Shown in pieces: positions 21,417-39,809 of a DNA stretch of 64,000 nt. A program made the translations under genes and the position numbers. Below the pieces are notes generated by a model that was not told where the DNA came from, did not search any database, and worked only from the letters and a program-made list of their open reading frames with translations. Origin of the DNA: Heterodontus francisci (lineage: Eukaryota); NCBI RefSeq assembly GCF_036365525.1, contig NC_090399.1, forward strand, positions 42,812,430-42,876,429. The letters are read 5' to 3'. Within the stretch, counting starts at the first letter, position 1. Each line of letters begins with the position of its first letter.

Positions 21417-21463
21417 TCAGGCATTGGCGGAGGAGCTGGATGAGGATTCCCCTTTATCAGAAG
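21417..21463 (-). CDS. MHC class I heavy chain, last coding (cytoplasmic) exon
   Basis: ttaacag| (A)CT TCT GAT AAA GGG GAA TCC... = TSDKGESSSSSSANA*, then G|gtatg. Ser-rich tail typical of class I. Confidence 0.8.
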
Positions 21464-21829: not shown

Positions 21830-21862
21830 TCTTTGTAGGATTGTAGCCGCTCGTCCCTGTCA
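21830..21862 (-). CDS. MHC class I heavy chain, cytoplasmic exon 1 (33 nt)
   Basis: tttttcag|TG ACA GGG ACG AGC GGC TAC AAT CCT ACA AAG A|gtaag = VTGTSGYNPTK. Contains the conserved cytoplasmic Tyr, phase 1/1. Confidence 0.85.
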
Positions 21863-21959: not shown

Positions 21960-22355
21960 CCCCCACACTGAGCCCCTCTCTCCACCCTGAGCCCCGATCA
22001 TGGACCCCTCGTCCCCACCTTGATTCCCAATCCCGGTCCCCTCGTCCCAACCCTGAGCCCCGATTCTGGTCCCCTCGTCCCAACCCTGAGCCCCGATCCT
22101 GGTCCCCTCGTTCCAACCCTGAGCCCCGATCCTGGTCCCCTCGTTCCAACCCTGAGCCCCGATCCTGGTCCCCTCGTTCCAACCCTGAGCCCCGATCCTG
22201 GTCCCCTCGTCCCAACCCTGAGCCCCGATTCTGGTCCCCTCGTCCCAACCCTGAGCCCCGATCCTGGTCCCCTCGTCCCAACCCTGAGCCCCAATCCTGG
22301 TCCCCTCGTCCCAACCCTGAGCCCCGATCCTGGTTCTCTTGTGCCCACCCTGAGC
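21960..22355. repeat. 33-bp minisatellite (cctgagccccgatcctggtcccctcgtcccaac), about 11 units
   Basis: Near-perfect tandem copies in the TM/cytoplasmic intron. Four G-tracts per unit on the gene's sense strand. Confidence 0.95.
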
Positions 22356-22554: not shown

Positions 22555-22665
22555 CTTTCCTCTTATAGACAGCGACAGCCACAATGACGAGAACGATGAT
22601 CAGCCCGAGGATCACAAGTACAATCCCGACAGTAACAGGGATCTGGGAGTCAGACTTTAGTCCTG
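22555..22665 (-). CDS. MHC class I heavy chain, connecting peptide/transmembrane exon
   Basis: ctccag|cag| tandem acceptor (22665 or 22662), (A)GLKSDSQIPVTVGIVLVILGLIIVLVIVAVAVYKRK G|gtagg. In frame with alpha3. Confidence 0.88.
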
Positions 22666-23635: not shown

Positions 23636-24104
23636 TTTGGGGACAGATCAAAAGTAAGCTAACCAACTAATTATGAATTACTAACAAACTAACTGTGGAG
23701 CTGTGGAGACAGTTTATAAAAAAAACTCACAAGCAGAAGCTAACAGGACAGCTGCAGATAGCTTAATAGTAGCCTATTGTTTAATAATCAGCCTAACAGT
23801 TCAAGGAGGGGGGATGTGAAACTACTGAAATAAAATGCCAAAATAAAATAACCAATCATGCAATGATAACAGAAGTCTACAAACCACTCAGAAGCAAAGG
23901 GGAGGGGGGGGGGGGGTTACTAGTTTTGTTTGAATAGCTATAAGAAAGACTTGCTGTAGTGAGCACATGTTCTTTTGTTTTGCTCTTTTGTTTTGTTCTT
24001 TTGCATGTTCTTTTTCTTTGCTTTGTAACAATCACGTCCTGCAATAAAGTTTCTAAAAGTTACGATCGGACTTCGTCTCTCTTTGTAACTGATGGGATCT
24101 AACA
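23636..24104 (+). repeat. ERV 5' LTR
   Basis: tttggggacagatcaaaagt...AATAAA(24043)...gggatctaaCA, homologous to 30301-30782. Confidence 0.9.
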
Positions 24105-24107
24105 ACT

Positions 24108-24125
24108 TGGCATAGTCGGCAGGAT
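24108..24125 (+). promoter_or_regulatory. ERV primer-binding site, tRNA-Ser
   Basis: TGGCATAGTCGGCAGGAT versus TGGCGTAGTCGGCAGGAT, the complement of the vertebrate tRNA-Ser 3' end (ATCCTGCCGACTACGCCA). 17/18 match, 3 nt after the LTR. Confidence 0.85.
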
Positions 24126-24419
24126 CGCTGGAGGATTAAAACCGAAGCCCGAGACATCAGATCTATATCGGCACCCCGGAGGTAAGGACTCCTCTTTACG
24201 TTAAAAAGTCCTCGGCCGTTGTCTAATTTCGGTTCCCTACCACGCAATTTCGAACTTTTCTGAGGCTCGAGACCCCCTTATAAACGTCTGACTCGGCGGT
24301 ATTTGACAACATACCGACTCGGCTACAAAGCCCGCGGCTTGAGACCCCCTTCCCTCCCTGAATGAATCGATACAATGTGACGAAGACGACCGACAGTTAC
24401 CAAACACCGTCAAAGGCGG

Positions 24420-25847
24420 GCGGGCCCTGGCAGATGTTTCCAAAGATGAAATCCTTCGGCAGTTAAAAGGATATATAGAACAACAGTTGAATTTGGCTAA
24501 AACGTGTACCGAAATTGAACAGAAATATGGTGTCTCCAAGGGACAGTGGTCCTTGGAAGATATAAAGAGAGTTTGGGGAAAAATGACCCGTTTAAAGGAT
24601 AAAGAACGGACCCAACGGTCCTTGGCCGTTATGGGCCAGATCTGACAGAGTAATGAGATTATCCGACAAGCTGAACGCGACCGTGACCTGACCAATACGA
24701 AGGCGGTTTGCGAACAATTGAAGAGGGAAAAGCTTAAATCAGAAAAGTTAGAATCTGAAAACAAAGAGACAATTACGAGAAGAACAGGCAGCCCAGCCAA
24801 AGGGCCCGGGACCACCCTGCGGACCTCCACAGCCCCACTTGTACCCGAACATGGACTCATTACGCAAAGAACTACAGAAAACACAACGACGGGAAGCCGG
24901 TATAGAGGAAGCGGAGTCCTCCAGCAAGGAGAATAACTCGGATGATGAGCTTTCTTTTGCACAGCTCACCCCCTTAAAAACAGAAACGTGTTAAGGTCAA
25001 ACAGGAAAAGAAGACTACAGACGGCAATGAGGTGATCACGTCTGAGCACCAGACACACTGGATGCACGTCCCTGCGGACCCTGAGAAAATCGATAAATGG
25101 TCTGAAGAATTGCCAGACCCGAAAAAGGGAGCAGTTGGAATGTTTGAAGGGAATTTACAACCTCTACCCGTGGGACAGGGGACAGATTTTGACTGTAATG
25201 GTGCTCGGGCGAGCGGGCCGAAGACAGAACAGAGAGGTCCAAACCGCTCTGGGCGAGGACGAGCAACAACTAGATGCGGGATGGGCTGTGATTAGTCAGT
25301 GGCTGCTAGCGTTCTGCCCCGCAAAAACGGATTGGAGCAAAATTGCCGCATGTCAGCAAAAAGGTACCGAAGAGGTGCGGGAGTATGAAGAGAGGTTTAG
25401 ATCTACTTGGTTTGAATACTCGAGGATAACGGACCTTGCCCCGGAGGACTTCCGCTTCCCACGTCTGAAGTCGGCGTTTGTCACGGGATTAAAACCAGAA
25501 CTATCAAAGATGTTGAAGGTAAACCTACCGAATTGGGAAGGCACAGATATATCCTTCGCAATGTTGGTCGACCGGCCCAGTCAGCTGGACAGGGACTTGG
25601 CAGCGAAGCTCCGAGCTCTGCAGGGGGGTTGGGCATCCAGAGGCCCTGATAGGAAGCAAGATAGGTGACCTGAGACATGCCACTACTGCGGAAAGGAAGG
25701 CCATTGGGCTAAGATGTGTACAGCCAGGGGACGGGGAAGAGGACGGCACCAAGACCAGGTCCCTCCCCTGAGGGCAATGACCTTGAAGTCTTTAAACAGC
25801 TGACACCTCAGCAACGGAAAGAATTACTTGGTGCGGCAAAAAACTAG
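24420..25847 (+). pseudogene. gag: ERV gag (disrupted, start approximate)
   Basis: TDWSKIAACQQKGTEEVREYEERF (MHR-like), LKSAFVTGLKPEL, zinc knuckle CHYCGKEGHWAKMC at 25678-25719. Stops and frameshifts. Confidence 0.8.
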
Positions 25848-28800
25848 CAGAGCCCTCCCTCGCCTTCTCGGTGCCCCTCCTGGCGCTAATAGAACAACAA
25901 AGAGATGGATTGTATATAACCGTGAGGGTGGGCGATCAATATATAGACTGCCGAATGGATATCGGAGCCGAATTAACGTGTCTATCTCAACGATACAGGA
26001 ACTCTATACCGATGGACGGTAAAGTTAAGACCACCCACGGGGCTGGTGGATATGGGTTGGTGATCAGGAAAACTCAGCCCGTTCGCATTGGTCTTGGTCC
26101 ACACGAATTGATAACACCAGTCTGGATAGGTCCGGTGGACCAGGCCCTTCTGGGTATGGACGTTCTTACTCAGCTGAACTCCTCGTTGCATTTTGAAGGT
26201 GGCCAGTTAACATGGTCTATCAGAAGTCTGAAGAAGGAGGAGCTGAGGGAGCACCCAATATGGGCTCGGGATAAGAACGATTGTGGGCGACTTCAAATGG
26301 AACCGGTAACGTTTACAGGATCCGCTCCGCCCTGTACTATACAATACCCCATTAGTCCAACATCTATTGCAGGAATCTGACCCGTAATTAGACAGCTAGA
26401 GGAGCAAGGCATGCTGGTTAAAACACACAGTACCTCAAACAGCCCTGTGTAGCCAGTACGGAAACCAAACGGGACCTGACGGCTTACTGTTGACTATAGA
26501 AGGGCTAACCAGTGTATTGATCAAAAGACTCCTCTGGTAGCTGACCCCTCCACGGTATTCAATGCCCTGAGGCCGGAACATGAATGGTTCTCTGTTATCG
26601 ACATGGCCAATGGATTTTGTTCGGTGCCACTGGCACCCGAGGACCAACTGTGGTTCGCCTTTCCCGTTCGACAACAACAGTACACCTGGACCCGGCTGCC
26701 ACAGGGTTTCCACAACAGCCCTACGGTATTTCATATGGCCCTACAAAACCATTTGAGGGAGTTACCTTCCATACACTCCACGGTCATCCAGTACGTGGAC
26801 AACATCCTGTTAGCCTCTGAAACGGAAGAACAACACGAACAAGATCTGCTGGACCACCTTCATCGGAGAGGACACAAGGCCAGTATCGACAAAGCACAAA
26901 TTGCCCAAGAAGAGGTCGTGTACCTGGGACAAAAGATTTCAAATGAAAAGAGGGAACTTACCTCGGACAGGACCACAGCCATCCGGGCTGCCAAACAGCC
27001 CACCACTATCCAGGAGATTAGGTCCTTTCTGGGTTTGTGTAATTTCAACAGAAATTGAATCAACTCCTACACACAACTGGCTCAACCATTAACCGATCTC
27101 TTGAAGGGAAAGTGGGCCTCTAAAGAATCAGTTACTCTAGCCAAAGAACAAGAGGCCTTCGAAAGCTTAAAGAGGGCCTTGTGCTCGGCGCCAGCCCTGG
27201 GAATCCCCGGCAACGGGAAACCGTTTACCCTGTTTGTACATGAAAAAGAGGGATATATGACCGCCATATTGACACAGGAGCATGGGGACCAACAGAGACC
27301 TATTGGATACAATTCGAGAAAACAGGATGGGGCAGTTGTTTAAGGGCCATGGAAGCTACATGCCAAGCTGTGATGGCTACTGCAGGTCTGGTATTGGATC
27401 CAAAGCTAACAGTCAAGTGCCCGCACACTGTCCACACATTGCTGTCCATGAATAGAGAATCCCAAGTGACAGCAGCCAAATGGACCCAATGGACAACGGT
27501 CCTAGAGGCCCCCAGCCTCCATATAGTCCGAGCCAGCCTGATAAACCCAGCAACTATGCTCCCATTGCCTGGGGAGCAAGAGGGGGAAGAGCATGACTGC
27601 GTGGAGGCTATGATAGAGACAGAGAAAGTAACCTTAGCAGCAGAGGAGGCACTGCACAATCCAGATTTAATCCTTTTTACAGACAGCTCCTCCTTTGTTG
27701 ACAACGGTACCTGGAAAGCAGGATGGGCAGTTACAACCTTACACAAAGTCATGGCGACAGGATGTCTGCCCTCTGGGACGTCAGCCCAACAGGCGGAATT
27801 GCAGGTCCTGTCGGAGGCATGTCGGATAGCGGAGGGAAAGACGGCTAATATTTATATGGACTCACGATACACCTTTGGAGTTGCTCACGACATTGGTCAG
27901 TTGTGGCGTAAGAGAGGATTTCTCACTGCTGCTGGTACACCTATCCGAAACGGGGAAGAGGTTCGAGACTTGCTAGAGGCCATGCAATTACCACAAGAGG
28001 TGTCCATTCTGAAATGTAAAGCCTATACGAAGGACAATACCATAGAGGCACAGGGAAACGCCCTAACCGACCAGGCAGCCAAGGGAGCCACCTCGCAGGG
28101 TGATTCTTCGGATGTAGGGACGCAAATATGTAAACTGGGTGCACCCAGTCTGGCACAAGATCGACAAATGATGCAGAGCGAGTGCTCCAGAGACAAAAAA
28201 TGGAGATGGATAGAGGCAGGGATCAAGCGATGTGAAGACGGCATCTGAAGACAAAGGGACACCAATAGGCCAGTCGCGCCACAGGCGCTGATGTCCTTTT
28301 TAGCCCAACAGATTCACTCCTGGGGGCACCTGGCCCTGCAACAGATGACGGCTCGGTTCCAGAAAGGCTGGTGGGGTCGGGGGTTCAAAAAACAGGCCCA
28401 GCTGCTGGCTGACCGCTGTGTGGTCTGTCAGAAAAACAATCCAGGACCCACCACGATAATGCCTCAACTAAGAGCTCCTGCTCCAGCCGGCCCATTCCAG
28501 TGCTTGCAAGTTGACCATATCACTCTCCCACCTGGCCAGGGATACACCGGCATTCTCGTTATTGTCGACAGATTTTCCAGATGGTTACAGGCCGTCCCAG
28601 CCAGAAGAGCCACAGCCAACCACACCGCTATTCTGACCAAGGGACTCATTTTACAGGCGCGGTCTGTCAGGAAGTCTGTCGGCTACTGAACGTTACGTGG
28701 AATTTACACTGTCCTCAGGCGAAGTGGAGCGAATGAACCAGACCCTAAAGCAATGACTATCCAAGTATCACCAGGAAGGAATACCATGGCCCCAGGCATT

Positions 28801-29206
28801 GTCGATAGTTCTGTGCAGTATTAGGGCGACTCTGAACAGAACTACAGGCCTGAGTCCATTTGAAATAATAACAGGGAGACCCATGTCTCCGCCGGGAACA
28901 ATTGATTTGCAAAAAGCTGATTGTCACCTGATGAGTGATGGCTTACTGGAATATTGTCAGAACCTAACAAATGCTATCAGTTCTGCTTCTTCGCAGGTAT
29001 CGGCAGTTTGGGGTGACCCACCAGAAAGAGGGCACGACATCGTCCCGGGGGTCTGGGCCTACGTGAAGAAAATACATAAAGAACCATTGGGCGCCAAGTG
29101 GGAGGGACCTTTCCAGGTGCTACTGACCACCCAGGCAGCAGTTCAAGTCGAAGGGAAGAAAGCCTGGATACACGTCTCTCACGTCAAACGAGCGACCCGT
29201 GACTAA
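25838..29206 (+). pseudogene. pol: ERV pro-pol (protease, RT, RNase H, integrase; disrupted)
   Basis: MDIGAE..LLGMDVL (PR). VIDMANGF..TRLPQGFHNSP..QYVDNILLA (RT). FTDSSSF..SAQQAEL..IYMDSRY (RH). H-SWGH..CVVC, LQVDH..VDRFSRW, WEGPFQVLLTT..WIHVSHVK (IN with GPY/F module). Confidence 0.93.
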
Positions 29207-29353
29207 AGACCGACCAGTTATCAGGAAAATTAGCATTTGCCAATATGTTCAGAATTTTTATTATCCTCTTTGCATGCATTTTAAATATCTGCTTACTTTT
29301 AGCTAACCAAACCTTTCCACTTTGGGGAACTAATTGAGTGTCGGTAACAGCAT

Positions 29354-30185
29354 TTGCAACTATACTGTGTTCATAGACCCCCCCCAGGCAACAACGTCTC
29401 CATTTCCCTTTTTAATCACACAGGTCAAAACCATTGGAATCTCACGTTTCTGCCCAAGGCACTAAATGCTTCCAAATTCCCCTCCTATAGTGGCACTTAC
29501 TTTATTTGCGGCCACAAGGCCTATCCCTGGTTGCCGAAACTTTGGACAGGATCATGTTATTTGGGTTATGTTACACCTTACATCCATCACTTGACCTCCC
29601 TGCCTGTGCCACCTCACTGGTAAAGGATGAGGCGAGCTTTCACAGAGACGGAGAGATTCTTTGCGATCTTGTTTCCCTGGTATGGGACAGCTAAGCTGGC
29701 CAGGGAATCTATTAACATGGTCTCTGTTCTAGAAAAAGTTGCCAACGACACCGCTGAAGCCCTGGTTAAAATAAATACAGAAATGGTGGCTATCCGGACA
29801 GTGGCCCTTCAGAACCGAATGGCCCTAGATTTTATCCTTGCAGAAAAGGGGGGGTACTTGCGCCTTGATAGGGCCCGAATGCTGCACCTACATTCTAGAC
29901 AGCTCCAAAGAGATCTCTAATCTGGCGGAGCACATCGAAAAGGAGATAGAAAAGCTCAAACAACCCCCCAATCCCGCCTCATGGGGTTGGGCAACTGGTT
30001 GGTTGGGCTCAATAGGGACCTCAATGGTACATGGTTTGGTCTTTTTTGGTATAATCATAACTTTGTATTTTATGTTTTTGCTGATTAAGTGCTGTTGTAA
30101 ACAAGTAACTGAAGCCCCTGCCAAACTTATGCCTTTACAGAGCTCCCACCGCCCCCTCTTGTGGCACAAGTGGGCAACGTATTAA
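29354..30185 (+). pseudogene. env: ERV env remnant (SU C-terminus plus gamma-type TM)
   Basis: FICGHKAYPWLPKLWTGSCYLG, RMRR/AF cleavage, fusion peptide FFAILFPWYG, ISD LQNRMALDFILAEKGG, CX6CC (CALIGPECC), TM helix. Stop near 29621 and frameshift in the G-run near 29850. Confidence 0.9.
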
Positions 30186-30300
30186 GCGCAACCCCTCTGG
30201 GTGTTGACGGCTGTTTCTAGACAAGTAGAGACCATTAAAGGCACCAAGGTGGGATTGATGGAAAGATTCTTAAAGAAGTTTGAAGAGTCAAAGTGGGGAC

Positions 30301-30782
30301 TCTGGGGACAGATTAAAAGTAAGCTAAATCAGCAAACAAACTAACTGTGCAGTTGTGGAGCCAATTTATAAAACATAACAGCCTAAGAAGCTAACAGGAC
30401 AGCTGCAGATAGTTTAATAGTAGAGTATTGTTTAATAATCAGCCTAACAGTTCAAGGAGGGGGAATGTGAAACTACTGAAATAAAATGCAAGAATAAAAT
30501 GCTGAGTCGAATGAACCAATCATGGACTGATAATAGAAGTCTGCAAACCACTCAGAAATAAGGGGGGGGGGGGGGGAGGCGTTACTAGTTTTGTTTGAAT
30601 AACTATAAGAAAGGCTTTTATATAAGAAAGACTTGCTGCAGTGAGCACATGTTCTTTTGCATGTTCTTTGTTTTGCTTTTTGTTCTTTTGTACCCTTGCA
30701 ACGTAACAACCATATACGGCAATAAAGTTTCTAAAAGTTATGGTCGGACTTCGTCTCTCTTTGTAACCGATGGGATCCAACA
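30301..30782 (+). repeat. ERV 3' LTR (preceded by PPT-like aagagtcaaagtggggac)
   Basis: tctggggacagattaaaagt...AATAAA(30721)...gggatccaaCA. Confidence 0.9.
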
Positions 30783-31025
30783 GTTACTTACAAAATATTG
30801 TTTAGTTAATGGGAATTTTTAGTTTAGATAAATCTTGCCCTGTAATTCTTGAAATTGCTCTGGGAATGTCAGATCTTGTGTTTTACCATTAACGGTCTCA
30901 CTGAGGTGGAAACACTGTGTATCCTGGGCCTCAGCCTGTCCTGGGCTGGTAGCTCAGCACTGACCCTCCCTCCTGTGCTCCTGCTCTGAGGCTGGGTCCC
31001 CTCTAACAGTGAGAGACAGTCTTAC

Positions 31026-31289
31026 CATAAATCACCACCATCATCTCCGTCAGCCCGCTGTGCTCCACCCGACAGGAATACTCAGCCTGGTCTTCCGGAT
31101 CAAACTCTATCCATTTCCGGATCTGGTAGGTTCTGTCGTGATTGGGTAAAATCCCAGAGGACAGGATCTCATCGATCATCACTCCATCTCTCCACAGAGT
31201 CACCTCGATGGCCTGAGGGTAAAACCCAGTGACGACACAGGACAGCCGGTTAGAATCACCTGGACGTGTAAAGGACACGACGGGGGCGA
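31026..31289 (-). CDS. MHC class I heavy chain, alpha3 (Ig C1) exon
   Basis: ctctcag|(V)APVVSFTRPGDSNRLSCVVTGFYPQAIEVTLWRDG...ILPNHDRTYQIRKW...YSCRVEHSGL...IY G|gtaag. 264 nt, C1-set motifs. Confidence 0.95.
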
Positions 31290-31399
31290 CTGAGAGAGAG
31301 AAAGAGGAATCAGTACAAGAAGCTTGAGGTTGTGTGTCCCGGAGCACCCCACCCCCCCGCCAATTCACCAACTCACACTTGCCCTCAGATACCCCCACG

Positions 31400-31926
31400 A
31401 CTTCACTCACCGATTCTTGGTCCATTCATCCGCACATCCCCTCATTCACCGACTCTCAGTCCCTCCCTCCCTTCACTCTCCGACTCTCGGTCCCACCCCC
31501 CTCACTCACTCACTGACTCTCAGTCTCTCCTCCTCAATATCTCACCGACTCTCTGTCCCCCCACCTCGCTCACCGACTCTCAGTCCGTCTGTTCCCCCCC
31601 TGCTCACCGACTCAGTCCCTCCCCCTCACTCACTCACTGACTCTCAGTCCCTCCCCCTCACTCACTCACCGACTCTCAGTCCCTCCCCCTCACTCACTCA
31701 CCGACTCTCAGTCCCTCCCCCTCACTCACTCACCGACTCTCAGCCCCTCCGTCCCCCCTCGCTCACCGACTCTCAGTCCCTCCCCCTCACTCACTCACCG
31801 ACTCTCAGCCCCTCCGTCCCCCCCTCGCTCACCGACTCTCAGTCCCTCCCCCTCACTCACTCAACTCTCAGTCCCTCCCCCTCACTCACTCACTGACTCT
31901 CAGTCCCTCCGTCCCCCCTTACTCAC
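31400..31926. repeat. ~32-bp tandem repeat containing the alpha2 exon end and splice donor
   Basis: About 16 units of ctcactcaccgactctcagtccctcccc (sense: ...CTGAGAGTCG|GTGAGT...). Confidence 0.9.
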
Positions 31927-32199
31927 CGACTCTCAGTTCTCGCTGTCCGTACAGCAGGTATTTCCTCAGCCACTCAATACACTCCTCCTCCAAGTAATTC
32001 TTCCAGCCCAGATTGCCAACTCTGTCCTGGTTCCAATTGTGTTGGATGTTCTGCCCCCATGGGACCGGTGTCACCCACACCATGTGATCCTTGTCAAAGC
32101 TGAGGAAGTCTCGTCCGTCCCAGCCGTACTGGTTGAATCCAGTGCTGGTCCCATCGTCCCGCAGGTCACAGCCGGTCATCATCTGGATTGTACGGATCC
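31927..32199 (-). CDS. MHC class I heavy chain, alpha2 exon
   Basis: ttgacag|(G)IRTIQMMTGCDLRDDG...QYGWDGRDFLSFD...W...NYLEEECIEWLRKYLLYGQRELRV G|gtgagt. 273 nt, with C101/C164, W147, Y159, Y171. Confidence 0.96.
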
Positions 32200-32214
32200 C
32201 TGTCAATAAGACAC

Positions 32215-32460
32215 ACCCAGCCAATCAGACCCAGTACCGCTGGGAGCCCCCGCCCACCACAAAAACAGCCAATCAGGCACAATGACAATAGGCGACCCCA
32301 CCCACTATCCCCCAGCTAACAGCCAATCAGATCCAGTCCCACTGGGAGACCCCGCCCACCACACAGCCAATCAGCCTCTGTCCCACTGGGAGACCCCACC
32401 CACTATTCCCCAGCTAACAGCCAATCAGACCTAGTCCCACTGGGAGACCCCGCCCACTGC
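32215..32460. repeat. ~50-bp repeat with five AGCCAATCAG (CCAAT) boxes alternating with CCCCGCCC/CCCCACCC boxes
   Basis: CCAAT at 32221, 32269, 32323, 32367 and 32421. Confidence 0.8.
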
Positions 32461-32629: not shown

Positions 32630-33105
32630 ATCTGTCTATTTAAAAGGACACCCCTGGACCTTGTTCTGTGTATTTAAAGCAACATTCCCCCACATCCGAA
32701 CCCTGTTCTCTATTTAAAGGAGCACTCCCCCTTTTCTGGACCCTGTTCTGTATATTTACAACAACACTCACCACCACCTTCTCAAGGGCAATTCGGGATG
32801 GACAATAAATGGTGGCCTCGCCAGCAATGCCCACATCTCCCGAGCGAATGAAAAAAAAATACTGCCCTGACCCCGAGCCCTCTTTCTGTGTACTTAAAGG
32901 AACACTCCCCCACCCCCAGACCTGGTTCTGTGTATTTAAAGGAACACCACCCTGCCCCCAGACCTTGTTCTGTGTAATTAAAGGGACATTCCCCCACATC
33001 CAAACCCTGTTCTGTGTCTTTAAAGGAATACCCCACCCGGACTCTGTTCTGTGTACTTAACTGAACACTCCCGCAACCTCAAATCTTGTTCTGTATAATT
33101 TAAAA
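32630..33105. repeat. ~42-bp minisatellite (tgttctgtgtatttaaaggaacactccccc), left segment, with a LINE 3' tail inserted at ~32768-32859
   Basis: Degenerate tandem units. The same unit resumes at 34025-34043 and 38940-39400. Confidence 0.8.
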
Positions 33106-38939: not shown

Positions 38940-39400
38940 CCCTGGACCCCATTCTGTGATTTAATGGAACAGTCTCCCACCCCCCACAACGCTGTTCTGT
39001 GTATTTAAAGCAACACTCCCTCACTCTTGGTGCACTGTGTATTTAAAGGAACACTCCCCCAACACCCCTCCCCCCCCACCCCGTTCTGTGTATTTAAAGG
39101 AACACTCCCTCACTCCGAAACCTTGCTCTGTGTATTTAAAGGAACACTCCCCCAACATCCACCCACCTCCCCCCCACTGGTTCTGTGTATTTAAAGGAAC
39201 AGTTCTTCACTCCTGGACACTGCTCTGTTTATTTAAACGAACACTCCCCCACCCCCGGACCCTGTGCTGTGTCTTTAGAGGAACACTCCCTCACTCCGAG
39301 ACATTGCTCTGTGTATTTAAAGAAACACTCCCCCACCCCCGGACCCTGTGCTGTGTGTTAAAGGACACCCAGAAATTGATCTGTGTATTTAATGAAACGA
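38940..39400. repeat. ~42-bp minisatellite, right segment
   Basis: About 10 units of ctgtgtatttaaaggaacactccc. Confidence 0.85.
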
Positions 39401-39548: not shown

Positions 39549-39809
39549 CCGCTGACTGGTTGGCTCGGGACATGAGGATCGGAATACGGGCCTTGAACTT
39601 CATCTCTCGCTCCTGTGCCAGGAACTTCTTCCGTGCCCAAGCCTCAGGCCCTTCACTCTCCACCATCCACTGCTCCCGAGGAATCAACTCCTTCCGATCG
39701 CTGTCGTACATAACAAACTGGACATCGTCAACATAACCGACACCCACAAACTCCGGGAAACCAGGATTTGGAGTCATGGACGTGAAGAAATACCGGAGAG
39801 AGTGAGAGC
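39549..39809 (-). CDS. MHC class I heavy chain, alpha1 exon
   Basis: tttttcag|(G)[37 protein letters not shown]...PREQWM..EGPEAW...[10 protein letters not shown]|gtgagt. 261 nt, N86 glycosylation site NQS. Confidence 0.96.

Follow-up and report, generated by a model that had tools for sequence, protein, structure and literature searches.

The intron that separates the alpha2 and alpha3 exons of an MHC class I gene in the horn shark, Heterodontus francisci, consists for about three quarters of its length of a minisatellite whose unit carries the 5′ splice site itself. The locus therefore raises the question of whether the reiterated donors are used in splicing, and whether their number matters to the gene. 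A preliminary description had inferred that copy number could act as a splicing rheostat and that the copies could seed exon-level recombination between paralogues. Coordinates below refer to the window, that is, the whole stretch of 64,000 nucleotides analysed; the exons, the repeat-bearing intron and the features within it lie on the minus strand, and slashes in sequences mark splice borders.

Pfam profiles recover the domain order MHC_I, MHC_I and C1-set in the host gene. The alpha1 exon (exon 2, 39549..39809; MHC_I, E 3e-20) matches the RefSeq models XP_067865801.1 and XP_067865803.1 at 86/86 aa, and its splice to alpha2 is visible as a loose end at 32200 in contigs of sequencing runs X5 and X6. 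The alpha2 exon (exon 3, 31927..32199, 273 nt; MHC_I, E 2e-23) ends in ELRV plus a G and is 100% identical to the H. francisci protein O19480 (O19480_HETFR, AAC60348.1), recovered with 33 hits among 57 candidates. The alpha3 exon (31026..31289; C1-set, E 4e-16) measures 264 nt, a multiple of three, and agrees at 87/87 aa with O19480 and with both RefSeq models, which match the host exactly at alpha1, alpha2 and alpha3. The transmembrane (TM) exon (22555..22665), located by tblastn of protein P0003 and by its junction letters, has a tandem CAGCAG acceptor (22665 or 22662), at which a single Ala separates the RefSeq isoforms X1 and X2; the longer form is that of O19480. Cytoplasmic exon 1 (21830..21862) and the last coding exon, running to the TGA stop (21417..21463), were placed by sequence comparison. 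No leader exon was found within the window, where the best match covered 7/16 aa. A further model, XP_067865799.1, represents a near-identical twin gene, with one differing residue each in alpha3 and the TM part. The nearest structure to the host protein is 6LUP (E 5e-100), presumably the solved nurse-shark class I structure, relative to which EYW is replaced by EAW and ITKNKW by IQHNW-type changes at peptide-anchoring positions, which we take to be Y59, T143 and K146 by numbering. Given these changes and the presence of several class I paralogues on one contig, sequence comparison marks the host as a nonclassical MHC class I gene (shark class Ib), with the class I domain order kept and peptide-anchoring residues lost. 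By its sequence it probably belongs to the shark UBA family, which extracts of a recent report describe as an expanded, UAA-derived lineage (PMC12562908); a survey of the open-licence literature found no paper tying the O19480/AAC60348.1 accession to UBA. When metagenomes were scanned with P0003, the pattern was matched 40 times, but no relative emerged.

The gene is rich in other repeats. Intron 1 is occupied at 39827-63999 by about 553 copies of a 45-bp unit, a 24-kb array that runs past the window end and stops 18 nt from the alpha1 acceptor; its unit carries CTGAT and a pyrimidine run and merges into the real acceptor tract, making the array an acceptor-side counterpart of the donor-side minisatellite. 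Avoidance of AG in this array was considered and ruled out, since AG occurs 59 times, against 18 for AA, 27 for AC, 70 for GC and 81 for TA, other dinucleotides absent from the unit. Related units of ~42 bp stand near both ends of intron 2 (32671-33104 and 38977-39365), a 54/98-bp repeat with CTGATTGGCT cores (32218-32458) ends 19 nt before the alpha2 acceptor, and a 33-bp minisatellite of 11.6 copies (21973-22355) separates the TM exon from cytoplasmic exon 1. The alpha3-TM intron further harbors, at ~23640-30780, a broken, antisense endogenous retrovirus-like element. Its terminal repeats, separated by ~6.66 kb, have diverged and are 78-95% alike over four pieces, its gag, RT, RNase H and integrase frames are broken into fragments, and the integrase C-terminus gives a match of MLV type. 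To judge from O19480 and the RefSeq models, splicing of the host transcript still bridges the element.

Intron 3, between alpha2 and alpha3, spans 31290..31926 (637 nt, GT..AG), as defined by its junction letters and an RNA joint. TRF detects a head-to-tail tandem of a 32-bp unit in 15.6 copies (80% matches, score 593) at 31441-31937; one further degenerate unit lies near 31419, outside that span, and the junction-spanning minisatellite as a whole covers 31400..31937. Its first unit starts at 31936, in the last 10 nt of the alpha2 exon, so that the donor is part of the unit, a border backed by both protein and RNA joint. Hand counting gives the junction unit and 16 intronic unit heads, the last of them degenerate with its GT at 31410. 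The preliminary description was thus right about a ~32-bp unit and some 16 copies, but its wording that the unit repeats the 10 exonic bases plus GTGAGT about 16 times overstates their fidelity. The full 16-mer is exact in only four of the 16 intronic units (31661..31808; GT at 31798, 31733, 31701 and 31669), situated 128-257 nt into the intron, the nearest being the fourth unit, 128 nt downstream of the true donor. The 9-mer donor TCG/GTGAGT is retained in five, the fifth copy falling in the degenerate terminal unit (31402..31419), and the homologous GT in 14. The array is better stated as four to five perfect and 11-12 degenerate copies of the junction.

Two unit types are interleaved, a GTGAGCGAG-type that is otherwise junction-like and a GTGAGTGAGTGAG-type, and the array is G-rich, with 27 runs of at least three Gs. 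Approximate dinucleotide shuffles (n = 2000) contain GTGAG(T/C) 2.1 times on average and never more than 8 times, whereas the intron has it 22 times; for TCG/GTGAGT, the shuffles average 0.02 and never exceed 1, and the intron has six, true donor included. The three exon-proximal units are all weakened (TCA/GTGAGT, a 3-base deletion and TCG/GTGAGC); selective weakening of proximal copies was considered and amounts to no more than chance (p=0.29). A blastn search of the window yielded no match to the unit outside the array. Contigs of DNA runs (records 2, 5, 6 and 7) also contain the array, which is therefore not an assembly artefact, while its copy number is not readable from contigs and 15.6 is the value in this assembly. 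One DNA joint jumps 165 nt (31719-31885) at depth 2 with a short side of 23 nt, and fits a paralogue variant unit as well as a shorter allele.

The authentic alpha2 donor, CTGAGAGTCG/GTGAGTAAG (31918..31936), is cut at 31927/31926 and joined to the acceptor at 31290/31289, confirming the junction proposed in the preliminary description. For spliced RNA, contigs from four of the 20 listed sequencing runs (X1, X5, X6 and X9) were compared with 30950-32300. X1 is a DNA run, and X5 and X6 are RNA-type runs from one sample, treated as RNA, though not so labelled on record, because they carry an exact GT..AG joint missing from X1. That joint, 31289-31927 (CT..AC), reaches depths of 624 in X5 and 1730 in X6, and a paralogue's equivalent of it 945 and 1961, with neither present in X1. 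A single 208-nt contig in X6 follows 31927-32075 without differences and continues unbroken into 59 nt of alpha3. The protein records point the same way: O19480/AAC60348.1, XP_067865801.1 and XP_067865803.1 all read RELRV/VAPVVSF, a reading that only the first donor gives. X9, from organism B, contributes two joints from diverged paralogues and has no intron cover, and thus gives no information on conservation of the repeat.

A search for repeat donors spliced to 31289 returned none among the 10 joints listed from contigs of these four runs, in which rare forms drop out, and 31927 is the only donor joined to alpha3 in the X5 and X6 contigs. This documents the presence of the first junction rather than its exclusive use, and the junction contigs do not separate the host gene from its twin XP_067865799.1. 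Some use of the repeat donors may go unseen, as contigs lose rare forms and NMD would deplete such transcripts. In both X5 and X6, no RNA contig covers 31318-31455 or 31686-31823, which alone is no evidence, since contigs lose rare forms and a filter removes some records. Over the first repeat units (31864-31915), X5 contigs show a depth of about 100-155 (155.6 at 31870; mean 101.5 over 31870-31915; 1.7 in X6) that is linked to neither exon among the joints listed; DNA depth inside the array also climbs, to 147 versus ~4. Because the X5 depth falls towards the exon, short matches from similar G-rich repeats would account for it better than read-through would, but it still counts against the interpretation that we favor below.

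Donor strength was scored by consensus matches and by the energy of the duplex with the familiar motif at the U1 5′ end. The true donor is the best in the intron, at -11.0 versus -10.2 kcal/mol for the perfect copies, and belongs to the only unit with an A at +7 (GTGAGTAAG). Behind it stands an in-frame TAA (31919..31921), with read-through giving ...RVGE and stop, so that every donor downstream of the TAA truncates the protein. All 32 listed GTGA/GTAA sites lie downstream of it and would give an alpha1-alpha2-only product ending in RVGE; a +4 donor (TGA/GTAAGG, 31922) precedes the TAA, and its use would shift the frame and likewise truncate. As the stop would lie 120-508 nt upstream of the new junction and further introns follow, transcripts from downstream donors are candidates for NMD. 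Both the in-frame TAA and the expectation that downstream donors yield an alpha1-alpha2-only truncation or an NMD target, as first put forward from the sequence, therefore hold in silico for all 32 sites. Intronic polyadenylation as a source of alpha1-alpha2 mRNA was ruled out, neither AATAAA nor ATTAAA being present in intron 3.

We consider it likely that the array is a minisatellite born at the junction, whose extra donors are ignored and whose presence is near-neutral. A ~32-bp piece made up of the last 10 exonic and first ~22 intronic bases would have been duplicated, after which slippage or unequal exchange would have multiplied the unit and made its copies partly uniform. By analogy with human F7, U1 and exon definition would commit the transcript to the most upstream donor, here also marginally the strongest, and the 637-nt intron is removed whole, as the recovered joint shows. 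Stray use of a copy would include the TAA and send the transcript to NMD, so that a leak of a few per cent would cost little and the array would drift nearly neutrally; such a low-level leak to repeat donors may occur. We see no mark of selection on the copies in either direction: 14/16 keep the GT and 5/16 the 9-mer. Further minisatellite arrays lie 18, 19, 41, 111 and 184 nt from other exon borders of the gene, and this pattern speaks for a general tendency of the locus to grow minisatellites, not for a device assembled at this donor. Two considerations temper the reading: the scanning rule has been demonstrated in mammalian cells only, and the pseudo-site use described for IFI6 and CBS, together with the ~2% second-unit use described for ABCA7, counts against donors that are fully ignored. 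As found, the locus is another natural case in which the first among identical donors wins, here in a shark, and array length may be of use in marking class Ib haplotypes.

Among the alternatives, an indirect effect of length survives best, although we regard it as improbable. Here the copies would hardly be used, and array length would alter alpha3 skipping or intron retention through bound U1 or G-run proteins, for which the 22 GTGAG(T/C) sites and 27 G-runs offer places to bind. The precedent is ABCA7, for which the extracts of De Roeck et al. 2018 (PMC5954066) describe a 3.2-fold rise in downstream-exon skipping with VNTR size; by this analogy it would be the best model for any dial in the shark gene, and such a dial would act on alpha3 rather than via decoy donors. 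Since the 264 nt of alpha3 are a multiple of three, skipping would keep the frame and produce an alpha1-alpha2-TM isoform, and retention a soluble alpha1-alpha2 product. Yet the sole loose end listed for 31927 continues into the alpha3 of a paralogue and not into the TM exon, which lies outside the compared stretch. The 10 listed joints, drawn from contigs in which rare forms are lost and from a stretch that excludes the TM exon, include no isoform attributable to the repeat, and 0/38 shark proteins are shorter than 260 aa, a weak indication from cluster representatives only. In the F7 experiments as reported, deletion of monomers or mutation of the G-triplets left splicing unchanged (PMC1557585).

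It is more doubtful still that the length of the array is polymorphic among the multicopy class Ib genes of sharks and sets the share of transcripts that skip alpha3 in frame or end in RVGE. If this were true, the outcome would be membrane-bound alpha1-alpha2-TM or soluble alpha1-alpha2 isoforms, or gene-by-gene tuning of dose, which would give an MHC family of cartilaginous fish a heritable dial for splicing. Array length that governed alpha3 skipping or truncation would let an MHC family of unknown function vary in dose and isoform through non-coding sequence.

The origin of the array bears on the proposed recombination. Among 38 shark proteins, ELRV precedes alpha3 in 18 of the 26 junctions matched (13 proteins escaped the pattern), and it closes alpha2 in Mustelus, Scyliorhinus, Ginglymostoma, Hemiscyllium and Carcharodon; so widespread an exon end is evidently ancestral, implying that the repeat copied the exon and not the reverse. 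A 563-nt contig of run X1 extends from alpha3 through to 31640 with one difference, evidently the A>G at 31166 that corresponds to the twin's Ile-to-Thr codon, and the twin gene XP_067865799.1 probably shares the array. At 31166 itself, the window has A, DNA run X1 has G at full depth, and G makes up 5985/6336 of the X5 RNA depth; as G agrees with the twin and the other paralogues, much of the expression may come from those genes. Units that match those of the array, though shorter or more diverged, also occur in this intron in two paralogue-like DNA contigs (depth ~2): record 3 shows 20 differences over 31078-31301 followed by a 44-nt match to 31622-31666, and record 8 matches 31885-31939 and 31438-31462. 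Paralogue introns are visible as contig pieces only, and the common unit implies that it predates these duplications or was spread between them.

In principle, a shared repeat could predispose paralogues to gene conversion or unequal exchange where alpha2 meets alpha3, a role compatible with a junction-born, near-neutral minisatellite, but one to which we give little credence. The matching units in records 3 and 8 and the contig that carries the twin's alpha3 variant into the array agree with it, but common descent explains shared units equally. Likewise, alpha3 differs less among paralogues than alpha2 does (4-9/88 versus 17-27/92 aa, twin pair excluded), although class I genes are expected to keep their Ig domain conserved even without any repeat. 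A mosaic test on five horn-shark proteins (among them P0035, P0004, P0005 and P0038) found only two informative columns in alpha3, one on each side, so that no breakpoint can be placed at this border. The sole discordance concerns a different intron: in alpha2 the host groups with P0004 at 7/7 informative columns, and in alpha1 it is closer to P0005 and P0038 (13 versus 19 of 86 positions differ), which hints weakly at exchange in intron 2.

Least probable of all is the rheostat, in which perfect copies compete with the true donor and additional copies raise truncation and NMD, so that copy number sets class I dose: five intronic copies of the true donor's 9-mer, the truncating outcome of all downstream use, and the leak of IFI6 and CBS to two pseudo-sites (summarised in PMC1557585) would favor it, but no repeat-donor joint appears among the 10 listed, the published leak goes to the most proximal sites while the closest perfect copy here comes only at the fourth unit (128 nt away), the idea presupposes length polymorphism for an array known at one length, and F7 and ABCA7 are, in the published extracts, insensitive to repeat length in donor use. 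The rheostat suggested in the preliminary description has thus not been sustained, and a regulatory role of the array is unsupported.

Repeats that span an exon/intron border and reiterate its donor are an established class, described for human F7, CBS, IFI6, LMNB2 and PDGF (Borensztajn et al. 2006, PMC1557585). The architecture is thus already published for these human genes and for ABCA7, and the shark MHC gene is an added case; the open-licence literature yielded no paper on this shark repeat, and subscription papers or supplements may describe the intron. The extracts of that study report use of the authentic donor alone in F7, LMNB2 and PDGF, and of two pseudo-sites besides it in IFI6 and CBS. 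F7 minigenes across 1-12 monomers (1-6 or 8-12) behaved alike, the most upstream site always being used, and pseudo-sites became active only once upstream sites were destroyed, with no competition up to a consensus value of 91 (PMC1557585). As far as the mammalian case can stand for the shark, the copy-number minigene test has already been done in F7, with a negative result. For ABCA7, the extracts give ~2% retention of one unit through the second donor, which is NMD-sensitive, and neither this retention nor its NMD varied with VNTR size (PMC5954066).

Set against these systems, as far as they are described there, the shark array most resembles the 37-bp VNTR of human F7 intron 7 (IVS7), whose first monomer likewise spans the exon/intron border and reiterates the donor, and for which, as in the shark contigs, no site but the most upstream was recovered from spliced RNA. 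It differs in having 16 intronic units, five of them with the 9-mer, rather than four to eight identical copies, in including 10 exonic bases per unit rather than four, and in belonging to a shark rather than a mammal. Copy number is similar to that in IFI6 (6-16) intron 2 (25 copies) and CBS intron 13 (15-20, or 16-21 units in PMC2630376), and CBS also has a similar unit length of 31 bp; unlike in these two genes, with their two used pseudo-sites, the three proximal units of the shark array are weakened and no leak was recovered in contigs. As in the 25-bp VNTR of ABCA7 intron 18, the unit carries a donor, and use of the next unit leads to a premature stop and NMD, a consequence predicted for the shark. 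The ABCA7 unit, however, begins at the GT, whereas the shark unit includes 10 exonic bases, and the ABCA7 length effect falls on skipping of the next exon rather than on donor use, while the shark gene is known from one array length. Compared with shark class Ib proteins, the host gene is one aa apart from O19480/AAC60348.1 over alpha1-alpha3 and likewise multicopy on one contig, and its repeat is intronic and leaves the protein unchanged. With a tandem unit that spans the border, a reiterated donor and the upstream donor as the main one used, the shark array is a donor-reiterating minisatellite.
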